The position numbers were made by a program, and so were the translations under genes. Under the pieces are notes generated by a model, which was not told the DNA's origin, made no database searches, and saw only the letters and a list, made by a program, of their open reading frames with translations. From a virus (lineage: Duplodnaviria; Heunggongvirae; Uroviricota; Caudoviricetes), in IMG/VR virus record IMGVR_UViG_3300032030_000012, positions 114,756 to 178,755 of that record: 64,000 nucleotides of DNA. One strand, written 5' to 3'. This document shows positions 837 through 58,123 of the stretch, in pieces. The number at the start of each line of letters is the position of its first letter. Position 1 is the first letter of the stretch.

Positions 837-2468
837 TTACATCATACCTGGTAGCGGACCTGAAAGTTGTAAAACATTTTGGTCTTTCTCAGGCTCGTCA
901 ACTATTAAACCTCCCATTGTAATAACTGTTGATGCTATTGATGTTGCATTTAAAATTCCATATCTATCTACTTTAGCTGCGTTTATAACTCCAGTTTCTA
1001 CTAGATTTTCATATTCTCCAGTTAAAGCATTAAATCCTAATTGTTTATTATAACAATTTGCTACTGTCATAGGACCATCAAATCCAGCATTTTCTGCTAT
1101 TTGTCTTGTTACAGATTCTAATGAATTATATACTATTCTTTCACCTAAAGTTCCTTCTCTTTCTGGAGCATTGATAACAGCTGATAAGAAACTATAACCT
1201 CCACCTGGAACTATACCTTCCTCCATAGCAGCTTTAACAGAATTAATAGCATCTTCAATTCTTAATTTTTTATCTTTTATTTCAATTTCAGAATTTCCAC
1301 CAACTTGAATAACAGAAATTCCAGAAATTAAATTAGATATTCTTCTTTTATATTGCTCTCTATCAGATTCTTCAGGTATGTTTTCCATTATACCTGTAAT
1401 TTCTTCTACTCTAACTTCTCTCTCATCTTTTAAATCAATTCCAGTTGAACTTGCATCTTTAAATTTTAAAACAGTATCATCAGGAGTAATTATAGCTTCT
1501 TCTACCTCTCCTAACATAGATATGTCAAAATCTCTAAAGGTTCTTCCAATATCTCTTCCCATTAAAGTAGCTCCAGTAGCAATACAAATATCTTCTATAA
1601 GATTTTCTCTTAATTCTCCAAATCCAGGTAATCCTATTATTGAAACATTTAAAGGAGCTCCTTTAGCTTTATTTACTAAAATCATGTTTAAAGGCTCAAA
1701 ATCAATATCATTACATATGATTAACAATTTTAATCCTTCTTTAACAACTGTATCTAAAATAGGTAATATATCTGTAACACTATCTATTTTATCTTTAGTT
1801 ATTAATACTTTTGCATCTACAATTTCTGATTTCAAATTAATTCTATCATTTAATAAATAATTACTTAAAGTACCATTAGCTAATTTCATACCTTGAATAT
1901 TATCTAAATGATCTTTTCCTGTTTTACTATCTTCTACAATAACAGATCCAAATTCTCCAGCATTTGCAAAAGCATCTGCTATTAATTTTCCTGTCTCTTC
2001 TGAGCCTGAAGAAATGGTTGCTACTCTTTTTATAGCTTCATTATCTTTAACAGGTATTGCAATTGATTTCAAATAATCACTTATTTCTTCACTAGCTTTA
2101 ATCATGTCTTTTTGTATTTGAACAACATTAACATCTTTATGTTCTTCTTTATATTCATCAAAATATTTATGAATCATTTCTTGAGCTAATATAGTAGTTG
2201 TAGTTGTTCCATCTCCTGCTACTAAATTTGTTTTATTAGCTGCTTGTATAATAAGCTGTGCTCCGGCATCTTCTGCATTATCTTTTAAATGAATAGATTT
2301 AGCAATTGTAACACCATCGTTTGTTATAATAGGAGCTGAAACAGCTTCTCTTATTAAAACATTTCTACCTTTTGGTCCAACTGTAGTTTTAACAATATTT
2401 GCTACTGTATCAATACCTTTGACTACTAAATCTTTGGCCTCATTATCATATTTAATTATTTTATTCAT
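837..2468 (-). CDS. groEL: GroEL chaperonin (Hsp60)
   Basis: 543 aa with GroEL hallmarks: VGPKGRNV, AGDGTTTTTILAQ, C-terminal GMM. Confidence 0.95.
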   Translation of the reverse strand: MNKIIKYDNEAKDLVVKGIDTVANIVKTTVGPKGRNVLIREAVSAPIITNDGVTIAKSIHLKDNAEDAGAQLIIQAANKTNLVAGDGTTTTTILAQEMIHKYFDEYKEEHKDVNVVQIQKDMIKASEEISDYLKSIAIPVKDNEAIKRVATISSGSEETGKLIADAFANAGEFGSVIVEDSKTGKDHLDNIQGMKLANGTLSNYLLNDRINLKSEIVDAKVLITKDKIDSVTDILPILDTVVKEGLKLLIICNDIDFEPLNMILVNKAKGAPLNVSIIGLPGFGELRENLIEDICIATGATLMGRDIGRTFRDFDISMLGEVEEAIITPDDTVLKFKDASSTGIDLKDEREVRVEEITGIMENIPEESDREQYKRRISNLISGISVIQVGGNSEIEIKDKKLRIEDAINSVKAAMEEGIVPGGGYSFLSAVINAPEREGTLGERIVYNSLESVTRQIAENAGFDGPMTVANCYNKQLGFNALTGEYENLVETGVINAAKVDRYGILNATSIASTVITMGGLIVDEPEKDQNVLQLSGPLPGMM

Positions 2469-9167: not shown

Positions 9168-10109
9168 TTACTTGTCGTACAAAAAGAGATTCCCCAGTGG
9201 GTAGCCTTCATTTACTCGCTTGATAGCATCAGCAAACAAAGGAGCGATAGACAGTACTTCAATCTTTGGTTCCTGTTGATAAAAAGGTACAGTGTTTGTT
9301 ACAACGATCTTCTCAGCAGCTGATTCTCTAAGACGTTCTACAGCCTTATCAGCAAAGATAGCATGAGTAGCTCCAGCATAAACAGCTTTAGCTCCTTTTG
9401 CACTGCAAATATTAATAGCTTCTACCAAAGTACCACCTGTACTAATCTCATCATCAAAGATTAAACAAGTTCTTCCTTTGATATCTCCTACAATATCTAC
9501 AGCTTTCGCACTATCACTATTGTCTTCACGTTCCTTATCGATCATAGCAATTGGACAACCTAAAAGCTTTTTATACTTATGAGCTTTTTTAGTTGAACCC
9601 GCATCAGTTGCTACTACAGTGATATCTTCAAGATGAAGTGATTTGAAATAATCAGCTAACATGTAAGTTGCTGTTAAAACATCACACCCAATATCAAAGT
9701 ATCCCTGAATAGCAGGATTATGAAGATCGCAAGTCATAATACGATCTGCTCCAGAAGCTTCGATCAGTTTAGCCATTAACTTTGCAGTTATAGGTACTCT
9801 AGGCTGATCTTTTTTATCAGAGCGAGAATACATGTAGTAAGGTAATACAACGGTAATGCGACGTGCGGAAGCTCTTTTTGCAGCTTCTACTGCAATTAGA
9901 AGTTCCATGACCCTTTCGTTGACAGGCGGTTCAGTTGTTTGAATGATGAAAATGTCTTGCTCCCTAACACTCTCGAGAAACTGAACGAAATTGTTATCGT
10001 TCTTGAACTTGAATGAGTTCATCTGTCCTAACGGAAGATCGAGACACTTACATACCTCCTTAGCAAACGGTACAGCACTGTTACAAGCGAAAATCTTTAT
10101 GTCTTTCAT
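9168..10109 (-). CDS. prs: ribose-phosphate pyrophosphokinase (PRPP synthetase)
   Basis: 313 aa full-length Prs (DLHNPAIQGYFD, VVATDAGSTKKA, DDEISTGGTL); locally GC-richer than neighbours. Confidence 0.9.
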   Translation of the reverse strand: MKDIKIFACNSAVPFAKEVCKCLDLPLGQMNSFKFKNDNNFVQFLESVREQDIFIIQTTEPPVNERVMELLIAVEAAKRASARRITVVLPYYMYSRSDKKDQPRVPITAKLMAKLIEASGADRIMTCDLHNPAIQGYFDIGCDVLTATYMLADYFKSLHLEDITVVATDAGSTKKAHKYKKLLGCPIAMIDKEREDNSDSAKAVDIVGDIKGRTCLIFDDEISTGGTLVEAINICSAKGAKAVYAGATHAIFADKAVERLRESAAEKIVVTNTVPFYQQEPKIEVLSIAPLFADAIKRVNEGYPLGNLFLYDK

Positions 10110-11527: not shown

Positions 11528-13423
11528 TTAATTAGAACTTCTATTTAAAAGTAACCTGATAGTAGTTTCACTAGCTACATTAAGAGTATTGATATCATCT
11601 ACTGTTTCTCTATTTCTACATCTAGATATTCTAAGTAGATATAAATTCTTTTTAGGTCTAGTTAAAGCTACATATTGTAAATTTCTTTCTTGTTGCTGAG
11701 CATCTTCAGTTTGAGAACCATATACATAAGGAAATCTAGGATAATCATAAATATATACATTATCAGCTTCTCCACCTTTCATCATATGTATAGAAGATAA
11801 AATAGGAGCTTCTTTATTTATATTTCCTTTTAAGAAAGAATCTATATATACTTCTAAATCTTTTACAAGTATAGAACTACAATTTTCTTTATAATTATTA
11901 ATCAAAGATTCTACTACATCATAATATTCAGCAAGAACATTATCTTGCATACCATCATATACAAAAGAATAATCTCCTTCTTCTTTATATTCTTTCATGC
12001 AATCTAATAAATAATCAACAGTATAATTAGATTTAGAAATAGGTTTCTTTAATGTCTTAGCATTTTTAACTAATCTTTTAAAAGTATTTTGCATATATTC
12101 CCTATCAGATTTAGATATTTTCTCATCACTTTGTTTCCAATCGATATTTGCTTCTTCACATAATCTATATAACTCTTTTTCAACATTTAAACATTGATTA
12201 TATCTTTTTATATATTCTTTAATAACTCTTTTAATTTCATTTACAATAGTTGTTACCATTTCAGTATTTTTAAATTTAACTGAAATCTTATCATCAAGTA
12301 CTAATTTTTTATATAATCTAACTAAATCATTATTTCTTCTTGCAAGAATTACATCATTTGCTTTAATATTTTTAGTTAAATCAATTTCATCTAAAAATTT
12401 AACTTCTCCTTTATCATCTCTTTTATGGTTCCAATCGATTTCAGGTACTATATCTTGAGCTACTTTAATTACATTTTCAGGACATCTATAACAAATATTT
12501 AAAGGTAATTCATTTAAAGCAAAATTCTTTTTTAAATTTTTAATAGATTTAGTATCAGCTCCAGCAAAAGCATAAATACTTTGTTTTTCATCTCCTACTG
12601 CAATTAATCGAGTATCAAAATTAATAAGTAGTTTTAAAAATAATTGTTGTAATACTGATAAATCCTGAGTTTCATCAACTAATACAAAATCTAAATATTG
12701 ACGAGTAGTCCAAGGAACATTCATTTTATATAAACAAGGAAAATATATCATATCAGTATAACCAACTCTATAAATAGGTTTTCCAAAAGAATCTAGTTCA
12801 GGATTTTCAAATTCATATTTAATTTTATCAATTGCTTCTTCTATAACTTCAGGAAATTTTCTTAATCCTAAATCATCCCAATTTTTCAAATTCCAACATA
12901 AACGAGGAGCTAGTTTATATATCTCATCATAATCATGATAATTAACATTATATAATCTAGAATAATTAACCATTTGAGATATTTCTCTTAATACATCTCC
13001 AAGTAAATCTTTAAAATCAGAATCAGATAATTCAGCATTAGCTATTCTGAATTCAGTATCACATTTTTGAGCAAATGAATTTTGTACCCATTCTTTAATC
13101 CTATCATCATGCTGATCTACTTCAATTATATAATTCTCTCCATGTTTCTTATATAAATAAGATCTTAAAAAAGTTAATCCTAAACTATGTAGAGTTTTAA
13201 TTTGTACATTATCAGAAATAATTCTAGTTTGTAACTCTTGTACAATTGATTTATTAAATGCTAAAAATAAACATTTTTTATCTTGAGCAATAATTTTATC
13301 AGCTATTAAACATAATGTAGATGTTTTACCAGATCCAGCTTTTGCATCTACAAGTAAATTTCCATTATTACTATCTATATAATTCAAAATATTTTTTTGA
13401 TAATTACTTGGTTCAAATGACAT
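11528..13423 (-). CDS. UvrD/PcrA-like superfamily-1 DNA helicase
   Basis: Walker A AGSGKTSTL, VLVDETQD, YRCPENV, VALTRPKKNLYLL. Confidence 0.85.
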   Translation of the reverse strand: MSFEPSNYQKNILNYIDSNNGNLLVDAKAGSGKTSTLCLIADKIIAQDKKCLFLAFNKSIVQELQTRIISDNVQIKTLHSLGLTFLRSYLYKKHGENYIIEVDQHDDRIKEWVQNSFAQKCDTEFRIANAELSDSDFKDLLGDVLREISQMVNYSRLYNVNYHDYDEIYKLAPRLCWNLKNWDDLGLRKFPEVIEEAIDKIKYEFENPELDSFGKPIYRVGYTDMIYFPCLYKMNVPWTTRQYLDFVLVDETQDLSVLQQLFLKLLINFDTRLIAVGDEKQSIYAFAGADTKSIKNLKKNFALNELPLNICYRCPENVIKVAQDIVPEIDWNHKRDDKGEVKFLDEIDLTKNIKANDVILARRNNDLVRLYKKLVLDDKISVKFKNTEMVTTIVNEIKRVIKEYIKRYNQCLNVEKELYRLCEEANIDWKQSDEKISKSDREYMQNTFKRLVKNAKTLKKPISKSNYTVDYLLDCMKEYKEEGDYSFVYDGMQDNVLAEYYDVVESLINNYKENCSSILVKDLEVYIDSFLKGNINKEAPILSSIHMMKGGEADNVYIYDYPRFPYVYGSQTEDAQQQERNLQYVALTRPKKNLYLLRISRCRNRETVDDINTLNVASETTIRLLLNRSSN

Positions 13424-13649
13424 AATATTTACAACTCCTTTATTTTATACTATTTATAACAACTCATATTATTAAATTTGCTACTACTATTATATTACAG
13501 TTTTGAAAAAATGGAACGAGATTTATTAAAATAAATTTAGGAAAATTTTTGGATCTGAGCAATCCATTGAAATAAAAAGCTTCGAATACAGTTTTTTAAG
13601 AATTTTTGGACAAATAGTCAGTATATTTATAAGGCAAAACTCTATATAC

Positions 13650-13770
13650 TCTATATAATGATATAGTCATATACTTATATAATGATATCACTCAATTCTC
13701 ATTTCTGTTTCAGATTCAGATCTCTTTATCAAATTTCAGATTCAATTATCTGTTTCAGATCTGTTCTGGA
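13650..13770. repeat. iteron-like short direct repeats (tatataatgatat x2; tgtttcagat x3)
   Basis: Seen directly in the ORF-free region. Confidence 0.5.
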
Positions 13771-13794
13771 AATGATTTTTGACAGATTTGTTAA

Positions 13795-14400
13795 ACACCA
13801 CCAGACAACCGATTTATAACACGGACAGCATCCACTTCGTGTGACGCTCGTGTTTTGGAAGCAGAAGTCACCTTACCCTCCTCTCTAAAATCAATAAAAA
13901 ATTGACGTTAGAGATGAGAGTAAAGTGCCCGAAAAAATAGTGAGAACCTGGCTGGGGTGCTCACTAGAACAATTTTCATAACGCGTGATTACGCGCTTCG
14001 TATAGCTTTCGGCCACATGCTAGATACTACTTCCTCACCAAGACTCGCTTATATGAGGGTCCTATAAAGATTTTACAAGTAAGTCGGTTACTGTGATTAT
14101 ATATCTTACTTGTAGTAATTTGTATTTCGTTTCTAGTTACCTGCTATCATCTATTTACTTGATTCATACTGTGTTCAAATATATTGGAAATTACATTTGA
14201 ACAACTGAGGTAATTAATATTTGCTTATGAACTTTCTATATATGCATCGCACGAGGACGGGATTAAATTTGTTCGCAGCTCGCGAGATGACTCTTTAACA
14301 GCCGACAAAACAGCACAACCGAACCGCGCCTGGTACTTGGAGATCGAACTTAGACAAGTTGAAATACCTTTCCATCGGTCAAATTCAATTATTATTATTT
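13795..14400. other. GC-elevated ORF-free core with many local hairpins (candidate structured RNA or acquired fragment; class unknown)
   Basis: No ORF of 60 aa or more in six frames; GC visibly higher than flanks; stems such as gtgag...ctcac and gcgtgattacgc. Confidence 0.3.
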
Positions 14401-14944
14401 ATATAAAAATAGTATCGCAACTTCTATATAAACTTTAATAATATCTTTTATATCTCCCTTAACGTTGTGTTGCCAGTTATTTATTCAATCTAAATAGATT
14501 AAGTAGATTTCCTATCAACTACTCCTCAATATGCTTTCCCATATATCTTGATTATGCTGTATGAAATTATATTAATATTTCATTCCCTATAATCTTGTTT
14601 TGAATCAATTATAGTTTAAATAGAACTACTTTAAAAATATAGTTTATCTGATGTGTTATACAAACCGTTACAAGAGTTCCTTTTTATAAATGTATACCTC
14701 GACTCTTTTGCACGTTAATTTTTTACTTTATAGATTTTATCCCAGGGCAAGGGACACCAGATTTCTGTGATCAGCCTAAGAGGCATTTCCGTTACGAGTT
14801 ATTCTAAAGGAGGGATTAGCTTAAATATCAAAACTTATTTATCTAATTTTCATATGACGCTCTAGAACCTACTTTTAATGTTATATAAAACTATCTATAT
14901 CTGGTCATAGATAGAATTTTAATTTACTAGATATTTATAACATC

Positions 14945-14993
14945 TTTTTAAAACAAATTAATAATCATGTGAAATTTTTATCACATGATTATT
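14945..14993 (-). terminator. rho-independent terminator after the 5'-3' exonuclease gene
   Basis: 13-bp perfect stem aataatcatgtga/tcacatgattatt with 8-nt loop and downstream T-run on minus. Confidence 0.6.
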
Positions 14994-15009
14994 ATAACAT
15001 CTTAATTTT

Positions 15010-16116
15010 TTAATTTTGATTAAATCTTTCAAATAATCCTCCACGAATAATTTTATTATCTTCTCTAATTGGTAGAGATTTATCAAGATCTTCTATTTTT
15101 AAATGATCTATAAGATGAGAAATTCTATTATATAAAGCTTCTACATCTAGAGTTTTAATTTCTAAATCATCTAGAATAGAATAAATCTGAGGTCTATTAT
15201 TATTTTCAAAAGGCATACAGTTACTATAAATAGTTGTTTTAATATTATTGATTACATCATCAGTAATATCATCATCAATTAATTTCAAGTTTGTAAGTAA
15301 TATATTAGTTAAAAATTGATCTTCATTAAAATTAAGATAAGCTTTTCTTTTAGGTACATCCATTTCTTTACATGCTTTATCTAATTCTTCTTCTGTTTTA
15401 GGAAAAGCTCTTTCTTTATCTATCAAAGAACTAAATAACTTATATAAACCAGGAGCTGTTTTTTCTCCTACTTGAAAACATGCAGAAGGAATATTATCTG
15501 AAGGATCTCCTACAATACACTTACAACCTATATATTCATCTATATTCATATTCTTTTCTTTAAGAGTATTTATATCCCACATTTCTTCTTTCATAGGTCT
15601 TCTTACTTTACATCTTCTATTATCATCTTCATATACAAGTTGTATTAAATCTTTATCATCTGAAACAACAATACTATTTCTACTCATTTTAGAAAGAATG
15701 CAAATTAAATCATCACCTTCCCAATCATTAATTCTAATTGTAGGTATTCCAAATAAAGGTAATAATTGCATTAAATCATTTCTTTGAGTACTATATTCTC
15801 TTCTAAATTCCAAATCAAATAATTGTTCTTCAGTTAAATCTTCATCTTTACATTCAAGTAAAGCTTGTCTTTCAATATTCTTTTTATAATTAGGATATAT
15901 TTCAAGTCTTCTTCTTGATAATCCTCCATCAAATATTACAACTGGATAGAAATTCCAATCCTTAGATTCTTTAATAATAGATCTAAGCACTCCATATATT
16001 CCACCTGTTCTTTTACCTTTAGAGTTTATCATTTCCCATTGATTTGGTTGACTAAGATTTCGATGTAGTAAATATGATCCATCAAATATTAGAACTCTAT
16101 TAAAGTTAATATCCAT
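15010..16116 (-). CDS. 5'-3' exonuclease / flap endonuclease (PIN-like, T4 RNase H / Pol I 5'-exo family)
   Basis: N-terminal VLIFDGSYLLHRN, acidic clusters, helix-hairpin-helix-like region. Confidence 0.75.
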   Translation of the reverse strand: MDINFNRVLIFDGSYLLHRNLSQPNQWEMINSKGKRTGGIYGVLRSIIKESKDWNFYPVVIFDGGLSRRRLEIYPNYKKNIERQALLECKDEDLTEEQLFDLEFRREYSTQRNDLMQLLPLFGIPTIRINDWEGDDLICILSKMSRNSIVVSDDKDLIQLVYEDDNRRCKVRRPMKEEMWDINTLKEKNMNIDEYIGCKCIVGDPSDNIPSACFQVGEKTAPGLYKLFSSLIDKERAFPKTEEELDKACKEMDVPKRKAYLNFNEDQFLTNILLTNLKLIDDDITDDVINNIKTTIYSNCMPFENNNRPQIYSILDDLEIKTLDVEALYNRISHLIDHLKIEDLDKSLPIREDNKIIRGGLFERFNQN

Positions 16117-53485: not shown

Positions 53486-53559
53486 TGGCTCCTCAGATAA
53501 GATTCGAACTTATAATAAACGGTTAACAGCCGCACGTGATACCCTTTCACCACTGAGGA
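53486..53559 (-). tRNA. tRNA-Asn (GTT)
   Basis: Manual cloverleaf: acceptor tcctcag/ctgagga, D gtga/tcac, anticodon loop cTGTTaa, T-arm ataag-ttcgaat-cttat, encoded CCA. Confidence 0.8.
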
Positions 53560-53562
53560 ATA

Positions 53563-53994
53563 TTAAATATTTATAATAGCTTCAAATGAATTTATTTCAT
53601 AATAAATAACTCTTTTAGATTGATTATTTTTAGTAGGCGTATATCTAATTACTACTTCATTTTTATTATAATCATTATTTTTATATAAAAATAATTTATC
53701 TTCAGTTATATTATAAAAAGCATAATAATCAATTTCATCTTTATAAAAGAGTTTTTTATATCCTTTACCGTTATTATTTTTAGTATTAGAAAAAGAATAT
53801 AAAGGAAAACTACAAGTACCATTCTTTTTTAAAGAAGCAGATTTTACTTGAATTTTATTAAGCTTATTATTAAATTCAGCTATTATATCAGCTCTCTCAT
53901 TATCTCCAAAAGGAATATAAACAGGAACATTTAAAGATATAAATTTACATAAAGTTTTTATTTCTCCTAAATTTCCTTTATTTTTAGAATTCAT
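53563..53994 (-). CDS. possible PD-(D/E)xK-type nuclease (homing-endonuclease-like position inside tRNA island)
   Basis: GNLGE ... GDNERADIIAE ... IQVKS spacing; weak. Confidence 0.3.
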   Translation of the reverse strand: MNSKNKGNLGEIKTLCKFISLNVPVYIPFGDNERADIIAEFNNKLNKIQVKSASLKKNGTCSFPLYSFSNTKNNNGKGYKKLFYKDEIDYYAFYNITEDKLFLYKNNDYNKNEVVIRYTPTKNNQSKRVIYYEINSFEAIINI

Positions 53995-54149
53995 TTAATC
54001 TCCCTTTCAAAAATATTGAATGAGTATATTTTAGTAGCAAGTTTTTTACTTCTACACGGCACCTAATACTCTCTTATGCTCAGTCCATATTATTCTTCTT
54101 ATCCCTTATGAACTAGGGATATGTAAGCTTACAAGTCCTTTATAGGACT

Positions 54150-54223
54150 TGGCTCGGGAAACTAGACTCGAACTAATAATACAGGAGTCAAAGTCCTGTG
54201 TGATACCATTTCACCATTCCCGA
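54150..54223 (-). tRNA. tRNA-Gln (TTG)
   Basis: Acceptor tcgggaa/ttcccga, D gtga/tcac, anticodon stem cagga/tcctg, loop cTTTGac, CCA encoded. Confidence 0.8.
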
Positions 54224-54331
54224 ATATAAGTATGAGTAGGCATTGACTCGTACATGCGTCCACATACTATCGCACTTAATAGGTTGTTTACCGACCTACT
54301 CATATAAAACAGAGATGCTATAGTCATCTCT

Positions 54332-54405
54332 TGGAGGTACAGATTGGAATCGAACCAATGATCGAGCTTTTGCAGAGCTTTGTCTTGCCACTTGACTACT
54401 GTACC
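54332..54405 (-). tRNA. tRNA-Cys (GCA)
   Basis: Acceptor ggtacag/ctgtacc, anticodon loop cTGCAaa, T-arm attgg-ttcgatt-ccaat, CCA encoded. Confidence 0.8.
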
Positions 54406-54438
54406 ATATATCAGAGAGTATCTCTACTCTCTATTTGA

Positions 54439-55926
54439 CTATAATTCTTTTGGTTTTGTTAAATCTTCTTTTTTATCTTCAACAGATTTTGCTCCTAGTT
54501 TACCTACAGCATATCCTGCTACTATTGATTTTAAATCTACTCCTAAACTATCTTGAGCTACTTTTAATATCTTATCTATTTTTTGAGTTCCACTTTCTAT
54601 TAATTGAGTTGATTGATCTCCATACATTGTAATTGAATCTACATTTGATAATGGAGTAGATACTTCTTTAGCTATATCGGGAAGTTTATTTATAATCATT
54701 TCTACTACTGAAGCTTGTTGCATTTTAGCTTGTGCTTCTGCTTTCTTTTCGATACCTTTTGCTTCTGCAATACCTTTTGCTTCAATACCAGCTGCTTCAG
54801 CTTCTAATTTTGCTTTTATACCATCAGCCTCTGCTACTGCTTTAGCTCTTATAGCTTGAGCTTCTAATTCTGCTGCTTCTTTATTAGCTTTTGCTATTTC
54901 TATTTTAGCTTGAGCTTCTTGTTTTGCTTTTTCTAGATCAGCTTGAGCATTTTGTATTGTAACTTGTTTTTGAGCTTCTGCATTAATTTCTGCTTTATAT
55001 TTATCTGCATCAGCTTGTTTTCTAACTTCTGCATCTAATTGTTTTTCTCTTAAAGCTACTTCTTTTTCTTTTAATTCAGTTTCTTTTTCTGTTTTAGCTA
55101 TTTCAGCAAGAACTGTGTTTTCATTTATAAGCTTTTGTCTTTCAGCTTTTTGTATTTCATAAATAGTATCAGCTTCTGCTTTTTTCTTATCTTGTTCAAT
55201 TTGATATTCATATTGTTTTAAAGCTAACTCTTTATTTTGTTTTGCTATTTCAGCTTCTGATGCTGCTTTAGCTTCATTACCTTCTCTAGCTGCAGCTGCT
55301 TGTGCTACTTGAACATCTCTTTCAGCTTGGGCTTTTGCTATTTTAGCATCTTTTTGAATCTTTGATAAATTATCAATACCTAAATCATTAATAGCATTAT
55401 TCTCATCTGTACAAGATTGTACATTTAAGTTTACTATTTCTAATCCTATTGCTTTAATATCGTCTTTAGCATTTTCTTGAATTTTAGTTGAAAATAATTG
55501 TTTGTTATTAACTAAATCTTTAAGATTCATTTGACCAATTATTTCTCTCATGTTTCCTTCAAGAACTTGTTGAACATTTCTTGCAATATACTCAGGATTT
55601 TGATTTAGGAAATGTCTTGCAGCTACCTGTATTAATTCAGGGTTGTTAGGTATTCTAACATTTGCTACAGCATCTACATCTACATTAATAAAATCAGATG
55701 TAGGAACTCTTGATGTCTTAACATCAATTTGAATTAACTCTAAAGTTAATTTATCCACTCTCTCAAAGAATGGGATTCTTAATGTTGCTTTACCTATTAT
55801 TACTCTAGGTTCTTTTTTAAGACCTGATATTAAATATACCATATCTGGTGGACATTTAACATAGCTCATGAAAATTAAACCTATCAGCAATATTACAGCA
55901 ACAGCGATAATGATTGCTAATACCAT
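54439..55926 (-). CDS. SPFH/band-7 flotillin-like membrane protein
   Basis: N-terminal TM, SPFH core, long Ala/Glu/Lys-rich coiled coil (flotillin/YqiK architecture). Confidence 0.8.
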   Translation of the reverse strand: MVLAIIIAVAVILLIGLIFMSYVKCPPDMVYLISGLKKEPRVIIGKATLRIPFFERVDKLTLELIQIDVKTSRVPTSDFINVDVDAVANVRIPNNPELIQVAARHFLNQNPEYIARNVQQVLEGNMREIIGQMNLKDLVNNKQLFSTKIQENAKDDIKAIGLEIVNLNVQSCTDENNAINDLGIDNLSKIQKDAKIAKAQAERDVQVAQAAAAREGNEAKAASEAEIAKQNKELALKQYEYQIEQDKKKAEADTIYEIQKAERQKLINENTVLAEIAKTEKETELKEKEVALREKQLDAEVRKQADADKYKAEINAEAQKQVTIQNAQADLEKAKQEAQAKIEIAKANKEAAELEAQAIRAKAVAEADGIKAKLEAEAAGIEAKGIAEAKGIEKKAEAQAKMQQASVVEMIINKLPDIAKEVSTPLSNVDSITMYGDQSTQLIESGTQKIDKILKVAQDSLGVDLKSIVAGYAVGKLGAKSVEDKKEDLTKPKEL

Positions 55927-56102
55927 TTATCTCTACCTCCAAATAAATAATATTTGTCTGTCTCTCCAGACTGTCACGTTGCTTCTTAATGTACTTCTTG
56001 CTCAACACAACGTTTGAACGAGACAAAGTTGCCGTGTACACCTGACCTGTAGAAATATCTGAGTTTCACTACAGAGAGGACTCAAACGCTCATACCTCAT
56101 AC

Positions 56103-56176
56103 TGGCAGGAGTGGTAAGAATTGAACTCACATTAACGGTTTTGGAGACCGTAGTCCTACCATTGAACGACACTCCT
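56103..56176 (-). tRNA. tRNA-Trp (CCA)
   Basis: Acceptor aggagtg/cactcct, anticodon stem acggt/accgt, loop cTCCAaa, T-arm gtgag-ttcaatt-ctcac, CCA encoded. Confidence 0.8.
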
Positions 56177-56244
56177 ATTTAATTTCGTCAAAACACAAGA
56201 TAGTTTCAAATGTAATGACGAAATATTAAGACTATTTTTCTTCC

Positions 56245-56331
56245 TTTAGGAAGATGGTGGAGAAAGAGGGTATCGAACCCACTCGGGCCAAATGACACGT
56301 GATTTACAGTCACGCCCCGCTCCTTACGGGA
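56245..56331 (-). tRNA. tRNA-Tyr (GTA), class II with long variable arm
   Basis: Acceptor ggagaag/tttctcc, anticodon stem cgtga/tcacg, loop cTGTAaa, T-loop ttcgata, CCA encoded. Confidence 0.7.
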
Positions 56332-56337
56332 CTACTT

Positions 56338-56424
56338 CTCCATATACTGGCGCCTTGGTGAAGTGTCGATCTCCATACATTTCTGTACCACTTGTTTTCA
56401 AGACAAGGTTTGGGGCCGCCCAAA
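56338..56424 (-). tRNA. tRNA-Ser (TGA)-like class II tRNA with unusual potential 6-bp D-stem/4-nt loop
   Basis: Acceptor gccttgg/ccaaggc, anticodon stem cttgt/acaag, loop cTTGAaa, 5-bp variable arm, CCA encoded; its 5' end coincides with the predicted start site of the promoter at 56431..56440. Confidence 0.55.
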
Positions 56425-56430
56425 GTACCA

Positions 56431-56440
56431 AGGCATATAT
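56431..56440 (-). promoter_or_regulatory. extended -10 (TTGTTATAAT) promoter of the tRNA operon
   Basis: Seen directly; predicted start about 56424. Confidence 0.5.
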
Positions 56441-56451
56441 ATTATAACAAA

Positions 56452-57027
56452 TTAATTATCTTCTTTTAATAGATCAGTTCCTTGTATTTCTTTTCCATTT
56501 TCATCATATACTGTAAAGTAGTTAAGTAGATCTAATCTATTCATCAATTTTAAAAACATTATTAGTTTTTTAGAATCTACTCCTCCTTTTGGATCTAAAC
56601 AACTATTAAAAGCATATAACAAAATGATATTATAATCATTATAAATTAAATCATCAAAAGTACCACATTTTCTATCTTTATGTAATGTAGAATTCCAAGA
56701 AGTTCTTTTTTCATACATATCTCTTCTCTTTTTCCAATCTTTATGATTACACATAAAGTCTTTACATACAAAAGGTCTAACAGGATATATATTACATTTT
56801 TTATTTTTACTATCATAGAAACAACATTGAGCTATAAGTTGATTTTCATTAATAATTCTATTAGTAGGTTTAATATTATTTACTTTCACATAATCTTTTA
56901 TTAATCTTAATTCTTCATCAGTGAATGGAATAAATAATCCACAACAAGATCCACATCTACTACATTCACCATTACATGTCATATCATTTATTACTCCAGG
57001 TTTTGCTTCATTTTTATTAATTAACAT
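56452..57027 (-). CDS. YkgJ-family (CxxCxxCC) putative Fe-S/zinc-binding protein
   Basis: CNGECSRCGSCCG motif. Confidence 0.55.
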   Translation of the reverse strand: MLINKNEAKPGVINDMTCNGECSRCGSCCGLFIPFTDEELRLIKDYVKVNNIKPTNRIINENQLIAQCCFYDSKNKKCNIYPVRPFVCKDFMCNHKDWKKRRDMYEKRTSWNSTLHKDRKCGTFDDLIYNDYNIILLYAFNSCLDPKGGVDSKKLIMFLKLMNRLDLLNYFTVYDENGKEIQGTDLLKEDN

Positions 57028-57209
57028 TTTATTACTCCTTATATCTACCAGTTTCTACATCTATATATAATTGTCTTAATTCTTCATTATCCATATCATC
57101 TGAATGAGGTATATTATGATCTCTTAACCAACATTCTAATGTTCTTCTTTCATTTTCATATCCAGGTAAAGACCATAATTCAGCATTTTCACTCATAAAG
57201 TCAACTCCT

Positions 57210-57557
57210 TTAAATTTTAGTTATTATAGGACAATATCTAGTTTGATAATTAATTTTATACATATTATTAATATAAATAGCTTTAAGATTACCTGTCCTA
57301 GTATAATCTTCTTTTAATTCATTTATTTCTATATTTAAAATAGTTTTATCTAACTCATCTCTATAAGTAAGATAAGGATTATAAGTACCTTCATTTACTT
57401 TTTTAATAGCTCTATCATATTCTTTTTGAAACTTATCTATAATAAGTTGAGGTGCTTGTAATTCTTTTAATTTAACTATTCCATTTTCTTTTTCTTTTAA
57501 TTTTTCTTTATGTTGATTTATCAATAAATCTTTTATAGTCATAATAAATACCTCCAT
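57210..57557 (-). CDS. hypothetical protein
   Basis: ORF track. Confidence 0.5.
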   Translation of the reverse strand: MEVFIMTIKDLLINQHKEKLKEKENGIVKLKELQAPQLIIDKFQKEYDRAIKKVNEGTYNPYLTYRDELDKTILNIEINELKEDYTRTGNLKAIYINNMYKINYQTRYCPIITKI

Positions 57558-57608
57558 ATCTATTATAACATATTTTTTAAAAATAGTAACGTGATTTATA
57601 TAAATTTA

Positions 57609-58076
57609 TTAATCTTCTTCAGCTGAAAAATATATATCTTGTTTATCCATTTCTTCTTTTTCATATTTTCTTAATTTAGTTATTATATCATCATATATAT
57701 CTACCATTACATTAGAATCTATTTCTTGATTCATAGTAGTATCTCTACCTAAATATTTATACCAAGATATTTCTAAATCCTTCATATTAGCTTTAGATTT
57801 ATCTACATAATATTTAAAATTATATTTTTGACATTCATCATCATTCCAATTATAAGCTTCTACCTCAAATACATTATCTAACTTAAATTTATTTCCAGTA
57901 TTACTAAAAGGACTGTCCCATTCTTTATGAGTTATATTATGCATAATCCTATTTAATTCATTATCAATACTATCAAGTAATGCTATAATATATTCAGGAC
58001 ATTTGTATCTTTGTATAGCATTTGGATTAAACATCATATTTCCTAGTTCTAGATTTTCTATATTTGATTCTTCCAT
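57609..58076 (-). CDS. hypothetical protein
   Basis: ORF track. Confidence 0.5.
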   Translation of the reverse strand: MEESNIENLELGNMMFNPNAIQRYKCPEYIIALLDSIDNELNRIMHNITHKEWDSPFSNTGNKFKLDNVFEVEAYNWNDDECQKYNFKYYVDKSKANMKDLEISWYKYLGRDTTMNQEIDSNVMVDIYDDIITKLRKYEKEEMDKQDIYFSAEED

Positions 58077-58123
58077 TTATATCTACCTCTTTTTCTGTTT
58101 AGAGAGATGAAAATATCATCTCT

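Follow-up and report, generated by a model that had tools for sequence, protein, structure and literature searches.

A predicted large structured non-coding RNA in the replication-gene region of an AT-rich jumbo-type phage

To our knowledge, few large structured RNAs have been recognised beyond ribosomal RNA (rRNA), RNase P, transfer-messenger RNA (tmRNA) and the self-splicing introns. GOLLD, ROOL and OLE have recently proved to form RNA-only assemblies without precedent. GOLLD (RF01998) is encoded by phages and prophages, exceeds 800 nucleotides (nt), has several domains in an 'ornate' arrangement together with a variable linker, and was recognised by covariation, no function being assigned to it (PMC12286853). 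ROOL (RF03087), likewise large and structured, comes from phages and prophages of the rumen and gut; it has no known protein partner and is predicted to contain pseudoknots (PMC12286853). Here we analyse an island at positions 13424..15009 of a 64-kb window of viral DNA (the whole stretch under analysis, from IMG/VR record IMGVR_UViG_3300032030_000012), which lies between a helicase gene and an exonuclease gene. The most likely explanation of this island is that it is the gene for a folded non-coding RNA of ~1.1 kb, predicted on the minus strand and belonging to no catalogued family.

Such an RNA would resemble GOLLD in being phage-encoded, very large and multi-domain, with variable internal linkers. 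It would differ in being ~300 nt longer, in giving no match to the GOLLD model at E<=10 in three lineages, and in lying amid replication genes, where relatives have a protein gene in its place. Unlike GOLLD, it is not tRNA-adjacent, the tRNAs of the window being ~40 kb away (53.4-58.7 kb as against 13.4-15.0 kb), and the tRNA-island location typical of GOLLD and ROOL was not found for the island. With ROOL it shares large size, a structured character, carriage by gut and rumen phages and a pseudoknot candidate, but it is about twice as long and has another genomic context and no match to the covariance model.

The original prediction, a reading of the bare sequence, had failed to place the region among tmRNA, RNase P, 6S or intron signatures and had suggested a search for GOLLD, ROOL, HEARO, tmRNA and group I RNAs with Infernal and Rfam. 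That search bears it out. In the whole window, the 4,227 families of Rfam 15 returned six tRNAs only at gathering thresholds. At E<=10, the island and its homologs in two relatives (L025 and L033) gave scattered microRNA, small nucleolar RNA and long non-coding RNA noise, with no family recurring, and there was no credible Rfam match to GOLLD, ROOL, OLE, HEARO, raiA, group I/II introns, tmRNA, RNase P, 6S or the rRNAs. Neither covariance models nor ARAGORN found a tmRNA, RNase P, 6S RNA or rRNA. A self-splicing intron was rejected: the models Intron_gpI, Intron_gpII and group-II-D1D4 found no catalytic core at E<=10 in the three lineages, an intron-encoded protein is not present, and the flanking genes are uninterrupted, the helicase and the exonuclease being intact and full-length in comparison with their relatives. 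Literature searches found no published description of such an RNA.

The island, its transcription signals and its homologs

The island sits amid replication genes, as the original prediction had said, with Mre11/Rad50-like genes downstream. Nearly every gene of the window lies on the minus strand. The two flanks are:

11528..13423, minus strand: UvrD-like SF1 helicase, 631 amino acids (aa), intein-free
15010..16116, minus strand: 5'-3' exonuclease/FEN

The region codes for no protein. Its longest open reading frame (ORF) has 45 aa, in keeping with the earlier statement that none reaches 60 aa, and reading TGA or TAG as sense extends the frames to at most 95 codons; alternative genetic codes were rejected, as they yield no gene-sized ORF. 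The 523 variable ungapped columns of the aligned islands fall evenly over the three codon phases (167/180/176, p=0.78), whereas those of the helicase control do not (226/172/144, p=7e-5). No ORF is common to the island homologs, and neither an open frame, a phase bias nor a conserved translation, standard or recoded, was found. A small peptide starting from the GGAGG-GTG site at 13876 was also rejected, because the nucleotides there are conserved and the amino acids are not. The GC-richer core that had been described is real: the GC fraction is 0.44 at 13800-14000 and 0.40 at 14200-14400, against 0.27 in the 64-kb window as a whole.

The signals that would delimit a transcription unit, all predicted from the sequence, are the following:

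14991..14999, minus strand: predicted promoter P1, extended -10 box TGTTATAAT, overlapping the 5' arm of the terminator hairpin
14959..14994, minus strand: terminator hairpin, an inverted repeat of 14 bp without mismatch and a loop of 8 nt, 15 nt past the exonuclease stop
14933..14942, minus strand: predicted promoter P2, extended -10 box TGTTATAAAT
13802..14927, minus strand: predicted large structured non-coding RNA, ~1,125 nt, with its first conserved hairpin at 14914..14891
13452..13461, minus strand: the helicase's own predicted promoter, TGTTATAAAT, 38 nt upstream of the ATG

The extended -10 box TGTTATAAW (TGTTATAA) occurs in 18 copies on the minus strand of the window versus 5 on the plus strand. 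Twelve of the 18 are intergenic; several stand 28-38 nt before start codons, and one is found ahead of a tRNA. The island has the motif at four places (14999, 14942, 13821 and 13461). The copy at 13821 was rejected as an internal promoter, as it is missing in L025 and L033 and lies within a conserved RNA motif. The tandem pair P1/P2, on the other hand, is conserved in every island-bearing relative, and transcription probably starts near 14927, as judged from the P2 motif.

The original prediction had placed a strong terminator at the 3' edge of the island and had assigned the feature to no strand. The hairpin at 14959..14994 holds up and is predicted to terminate the upstream exonuclease operon, but the edge does not: because all the genes are on the minus strand, the hairpin marks the upstream end of the island unit. 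Its arms are kept in L005, L020 and L024, and at the same position L025 and L033 have another canonical hairpin followed by a T-run. In L024 (L024:250-285) the 8-nt loop is reverse-complemented between arms identical to those of the window, which is the signature of palindrome-mediated inversion. With this terminator upstream and the promoter of the next gene downstream, the island is a separate minus-strand unit; since the helicase has its own promoter at 13452..13461, the unit is dispensable as a helicase leader.

Relatives were reached through a helicase search against 5.8 billion proteins followed by contig retrieval, which gave a graded series. Six homologous islands were found in metagenomes, next to helicases that are 68-99% identical to that of the window; five are complete (L005, L020, L024, L025 and L033) and one is partial (L031). 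In IMG/VR and JGI there was one near-identical contig only (140.8 kb), which is L005. Its island is 97.6% identical to that of the window, from which it differs by 33 nt of additional repeat units, a 1-nt indel in an A-run of the GC core, which also speaks against a coding role, and a few substitutions. Identity to the window island falls to 95% in L020, 86.8% in L024 and 62-65% over the RNA region in L025 and L033; between the helicase and exonuclease genes of these two and those of the window, nucleotide identity is 70-76%. All are arranged alike: the terminator comes first, then two promoters, then ~1.1 kb of conserved blocks with variable AT-rich linkers between them, and lastly the repeat tract and the helicase promoter. 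Thus, the terminator, both promoters and the layout of the conserved blocks are kept even where the flanking genes are only 70-76% identical.

The island is single-copy, and its homologs were found in syntenic phage contigs only. Exact-motif scans of IMG/VR with four patterns returned the near-identical contig only; blastn of the full island against 50,697 GenBank phages returned no match; and a 20-base motif that is invariant in all island copies was absent from 185,579 bacterial and archaeal species genomes of GTDB. Searches of 81 fetched loci and the window with an nhmmer profile and covariance models recovered the known islands and L031 only. The earlier suggestion of a host-derived fragment therefore finds no support in the empty genome scan and the purely syntenic homologs. 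Nothing was found that points to a role in packaging or as a terminal repeat, which had likewise been proposed.

Consensus fold of the predicted RNA

RNAalifold was run on a six-sequence alignment (A5) and gave a consensus of 261 pairs in ~38 helices. Fifty of these pairs keep pairing through changes on both sides, compared with 20.8±3.3 in shuffled alignments (0 of 500 shuffles reach 50) and 6-11 when the partners are slid by 1-3 columns. Of all alignment cells assigned to pairs, 92.7% are paired, versus 38-45% after sliding by 1-3 columns and 87.6% in the shuffles. Many helices, then, keep their pairing through compensatory substitutions, which is what the proposed look for covariation in related phages was meant to reveal. 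Between the helices there are invariant stretches of 9-20 nt, in lineages that are 62-65% identical overall. When orthologous variable segments were folded separately, they formed the same hairpins despite their differing sequences.

The minus strand folds better than the plus strand by 20-44 kcal/mol in all six sequences, and the alifold energies are -150.6 for the minus strand and -128.3 for the plus strand. G-U pairs make up 13% of the consensus cells (200 cells) and would be mismatches on the opposite strand. Individual helices of the fold, together with two long-range candidates (LR1 and LR2), are:

14797..14873, minus strand: helix of the 5' domain, A5 columns 83-98 with 146-159, enclosing an inner hairpin
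14173..14203, minus strand: 12-bp hairpin whose shape is kept while its sequence differs in every lineage
14074..14114, minus strand: 10-bp helix closing an invariant loop, AUAUAUAAU...GUAACCGA
13818..13854, minus strand: two-tier 3' hairpin, the sequence of the inner stem being wholly replaced in L025 and L033
14726..14733 with 14062..14069, minus strand: candidate long-range helix LR1, 8 bp, 665 nt apart
14136..14143 with 13802..13809, minus strand: candidate long-range helix LR2, 8 bp

The helix of the 5' domain has 13 pairs, 4 of them changed on both sides, with 98.7% of its cells paired. The hairpin at 14173..14203 was obtained in independent folds of the window sequence, L020, L024, L025 and L033, and its loop AAUUUCCA is conserved; the two-tier hairpin at 13818..13854 likewise came out of such separate folds. 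Five of the 10 pairs in the helix at 14074..14114 are changed on both sides. A covariance model of the 142-nt block to which this helix belongs found L031, which had not been used in building it, at 95 bits and nothing else in 417 kb. LR1 and LR2 came from a search for distant stacks that pair in every lineage. In LR1, every sequence is paired and L025 and L033 have a U-A to A-U swap; the same two show a C-G to G-C swap in LR2. In a parallel-register control, stacks with a covarying pair never exceeded 6 bp.

The features by which large 'ornate' RNAs are recognised, namely size, covarying helices, conserved unpaired nucleotides and a non-coding character, were all found here. The suggestion that the region encodes a large structured non-coding RNA has thus gained conserved homologs, compensatory changes, a preference for the minus strand and a conserved unit of terminator and promoters. 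The structured core had been drawn at 13795..14400; it is real but was drawn too short, as the conserved structured region reaches ~14915, with 13802 as the end of its last conserved helix strand. The local stems named at the time, gtgag...ctcac at 13931-13955 and gcgtgattacgc, both exist, though they are confined to the lineage of the window.

Several observations weigh against this reading. The covariation rests on about four independent lineages, and L025 and L033 share many changes, so the cell counts overstate the number of events. The structure was scored on the alignment from which it came, and its contrast with the controls is inflated to that extent. For the 5' half (14930..14400), stability does not exceed that of shuffled sequence (z=+0.55), as opposed to z=-4.1 for the 3' half (20 shuffles). 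LR1 and LR2 cross, which means either a pseudoknot or that one of the two is spurious. The central long-range helices proposed by RNAalifold are nearly invariant and clash with a well-supported local hairpin, and they were not relied on. No conserved terminator marks the 3' end of the RNA among the island homologs. A recent recombination block may explain part of the high identity of L020, which stays at 99-100% through the first 200 nt of the helicase gene. Finally, action of the RNA in trans is an analogy and not a result.

Repeat tract, slot protein and rival explanations

Between the predicted RNA and the helicase promoter lie two repetitive segments, neither of which is assigned to a strand:

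13700..13775: ATCTGA/TCAGAT units, short and degenerate, at intervals of 13-26 nt
13639..13702: TATA-rich tract, periodic at 8 nt, which holds TATATAATGATAT twice and is 33 nt longer in L005

The two copies of TATATAATGATAT reported earlier are exact (13652 and 13676). Of the three copies claimed for TGTTTCAGAT, only two are exact in the island (13706 and 13751); the third, 'aatttcagat' at 13731..13740, has two mismatches, and the real repeat unit is the shorter TCAGAT/ATCTGA. Taken alone, the short repeats are barely above chance, a 13-mer with one mismatch being matched by 5 of 100 shuffles. The tract is real all the same, and its copy number differs in L020, L024, L025 and L031 as well as in L005; L025 and L031 have analogous tracts built of different units, and L033 has almost none. 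Such a tract fits a set of protein-binding sites next to a region prone to unwinding, and it would fit a slippage-prone spacer equally well.

Syntenic relatives of another type carry in the same slot an ORF of 504-537 aa, followed by a spacer of ~550 nt with small GC hairpins, and the island is not present in their neighbourhoods. Some of these ORF-type relatives have a helicase 85% identical to that of the window, and the two states are scattered over the helicase lineages. The ORF evolves fast (29-31% identity between lineages) and is an ORFan, with no family in Pfam or PHROGs and no copy in the 64-kb window. Its AlphaFold model, of modest quality (predicted local distance difference test score, pLDDT, of 65), contains two winged-helix modules; it is therefore a predicted DNA-binding protein, acting perhaps as a regulator or as an initiator that binds the origin. 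We rejected the idea that the island arose from this ORF by decay, for tblastn of the slot ORFans against it gave noise only and translated similarity never went beyond that level.

The GC hairpins of the ORF-type spacers (AAAGCUAAAGCUUU and AGAUCUAAAGAUCU) are conserved (L026:5680-5870, L032:5520-5600, L006:7690-7800), and their AGATCT core recalls the ATCTGA units of the window tract. In a distant clade, with helicases 46-49% identical, the same slot is a 660-bp spacer (L010:7330-7992, identical in L009). It has a GC-rich core of its own of ~270 nt, including a C-rich tract and a GGAGGAGGAGGAGAAGGAGGAG tract, and patches of it recur in L012, L037 and L039, with 76-89% conservation within the clade. 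This spacer matched neither the island profile nor Rfam, and may be another, smaller structured element.

A cluster of several small structured RNAs, independent of each other and separately transcribed or processed (~14914-14660, 14614-14435, 14390-14220 and 14115-13802), appears improbable to us, even though it would agree with the four conserved GC-richer blocks and the variable AT-rich linkers between them, with the mostly local nature of the best-supported helices and with the lack of covariation in the central long-range pairs. Conservation is continuous along the RNA, and the blocks occur together and in the same order in every lineage. No conserved promoter or terminator separates them in the island homologs, the TGTTATAA at 13821 belonging to the window lineage only, and the two 8-bp inter-block helices, LR1 and LR2, have compensatory swaps and are longer than any covarying stack of the parallel-register control. 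Internal linkers that vary or are disordered, moreover, are also found in GOLLD and ROOL (PMC12286853). The prospect that the island is not an RNA gene at all is slighter by far. Covariation of hairpins alone cannot separate RNA from single-stranded DNA, in which hairpins could be packaging or primosome signals; the G-U (in DNA, G-T) share of 13% of the cells and the preference of 20-44 kcal/mol for the minus strand in six of six sequences speak against such a DNA-level element. An inert remnant, that is, a decayed gene or a hitch-hiking foreign fragment, would be in line with the way in which the L020 identity runs on into the helicase gene, as a recombination block would. However, decay would not give block-wise conservation with compensatory changes at 62-65% identity, and the island has no translated similarity to the slot ORFan, no copy of its invariant motif in bacterial or archaeal genomes and no full-length match in GenBank phages. 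Neither a DNA-level element nor a remnant accounts for the conservation of a dedicated terminator and promoters. Both together seem to us highly improbable.

A replication-origin module driven by the RNA is the rival with the most in its favour, and it is still unlikely. As to the replication origin proposed earlier, the repeat tract may or may not contain one, and the RNA itself could be linked to it. The primary origin of T7 (phi1.1A/B) has tandem promoters, T4 oriF/oriG and ColE1 RNA II are transcript-primed, and ColE1 needs a folded transcript of ~550 nt. At the island, tandem promoters would similarly drive a structured transcript towards the repeat and TATA tracts, where a lasting RNA-DNA hybrid would be processed to give the leading-strand primer; in the ORF-type relatives, a protein initiator (the double winged-helix ORFan) with its own hairpin-rich spacer would do this work in the same slot. 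The promoters do point to an AT-rich, easily unwound region with 8-nt periodicity close to replication genes (the FEN/RNase H-type exonuclease, the SF1 helicase and the Mre11/Rad50-like genes downstream), no terminator lies between the RNA and the repeat tract, and a protein alternative occupies the slot elsewhere while the ORFan is not in the window. A primer, though, would need neither 1.1 kb nor ~38 helices nor such a number of invariant single-stranded blocks: the RNA has twice the length of the ColE1 transcript and its unpaired blocks are far more conserved than a pre-primer requires, and neither a conserved G-rich/C-rich element that would stabilise a hybrid nor an antisense regulator was seen at the island. 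Iteron origins offer the other comparison, with winged-helix initiators (plasmid RepA/RepE/Pi, lambda O) and at least three iterons of 17-22 bp in helical phase beside an AT-rich unwinding element. The ORF-type relatives are similar in having a double winged-helix protein and then a repeat- and hairpin-rich spacer, and the window is similar in the order of its tracts, the repeats being followed by the adjoining AT-rich one. But the window lacks that protein, and its repeats are of 6-13 nt, degenerate, irregularly spaced and unconserved between lineages, almost none being left in L033. The cumulative GC skew has no turning point at the island, and no initiator was identified in the 64-kb window. 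Transcription regulators have winged-helix folds just as typically, the ORFan model reaches a pLDDT of only 65, and a shared slot is no proof of an equivalent function.

Elsewhere in the window and its relatives, some further features were observed. The source is an AT-rich jumbo-type phage, and a tailed one, as the window encodes a portal, a tail sheath and a GroEL-like chaperonin (full-length, 837..2468, minus strand; PHROG 5725, E=3e-116). GC content is unusually high (up to 0.44) in the coding segment 9088..10130, where an ORF of 313 aa (9168..10109) is probably a ribose-phosphate pyrophosphokinase, by synteny with L018 (Pribosyl_synth). Seven tRNA genes (Asn, Gln, Cys, Trp, Tyr, Ser and Pro) lie among small ORFs at 53486..58715 on the minus strand, with a predicted TGTTATAAT promoter immediately before tRNA-Tyr, at 56449. 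On the plus strand, a single sizeable ORF, 39271..39726 (151 aa), occupies a gap between minus-strand genes, and one of the five plus-strand TGTTATAA motifs stands just upstream of it, at 39224; the remaining plus-strand ORFs of at least 80 aa overlap minus-strand ORFs. An intein interrupts the UvrD-like helicase in several relatives (L002:5995-8901, L020:6001-8793, proteins P0027-P0041), the helicase forms of 968-988 aa containing an intein with a LAGLIDADG endonuclease domain. The helicase-based scan of GTDB found a 53%-identical relative (L034, CALESE010000015.1) on a 5-kb contig binned in a metagenome-assembled genome of an uncultured Romboutsia, which hints weakly at low-GC Clostridia as hosts.

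Implications for large phage RNAs

The reading with the best support is that the island represents a new large structured RNA family of phages, closest in style to GOLLD and ROOL and unrelated to them by model. Transcription would begin near 14927, at the tandem extended -10 promoters, and run the same way as the adjoining replication genes; the product would act in trans, whether as a scaffold, as a particle of RNA and protein or as an assembly of RNA only, after the example of GOLLD and ROOL. For a folded RNA acting in trans, the action being argued by analogy, we see the balance as even, which still makes it the likeliest of the readings. The repeat tract downstream would then be a separate DNA element, either a set of protein-binding sites or an easily unwound region ahead of the helicase operon.

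The alternation in the slot suggests a bolder idea, to which we give a little less credence than to the RNA-driven origin: the RNA may functionally replace the winged-helix protein, as one version of a module for replication start or licensing, or for operon control, that exists in interchangeable RNA and protein forms. Along similar lines, the RNA could be a novel ribozyme, or else an RNA particle that assembles itself and exceeds GOLLD in size.

A further family, unrelated to GOLLD, ROOL and OLE and longer than GOLLD, would extend the short list of large RNAs. Its carriers form a widespread group of ~200-kb AT-rich phages of the gut and rumen. The alternation of RNA and protein at one locus is a natural experiment, and it provides a functional handle of a kind that GOLLD and ROOL do not have.

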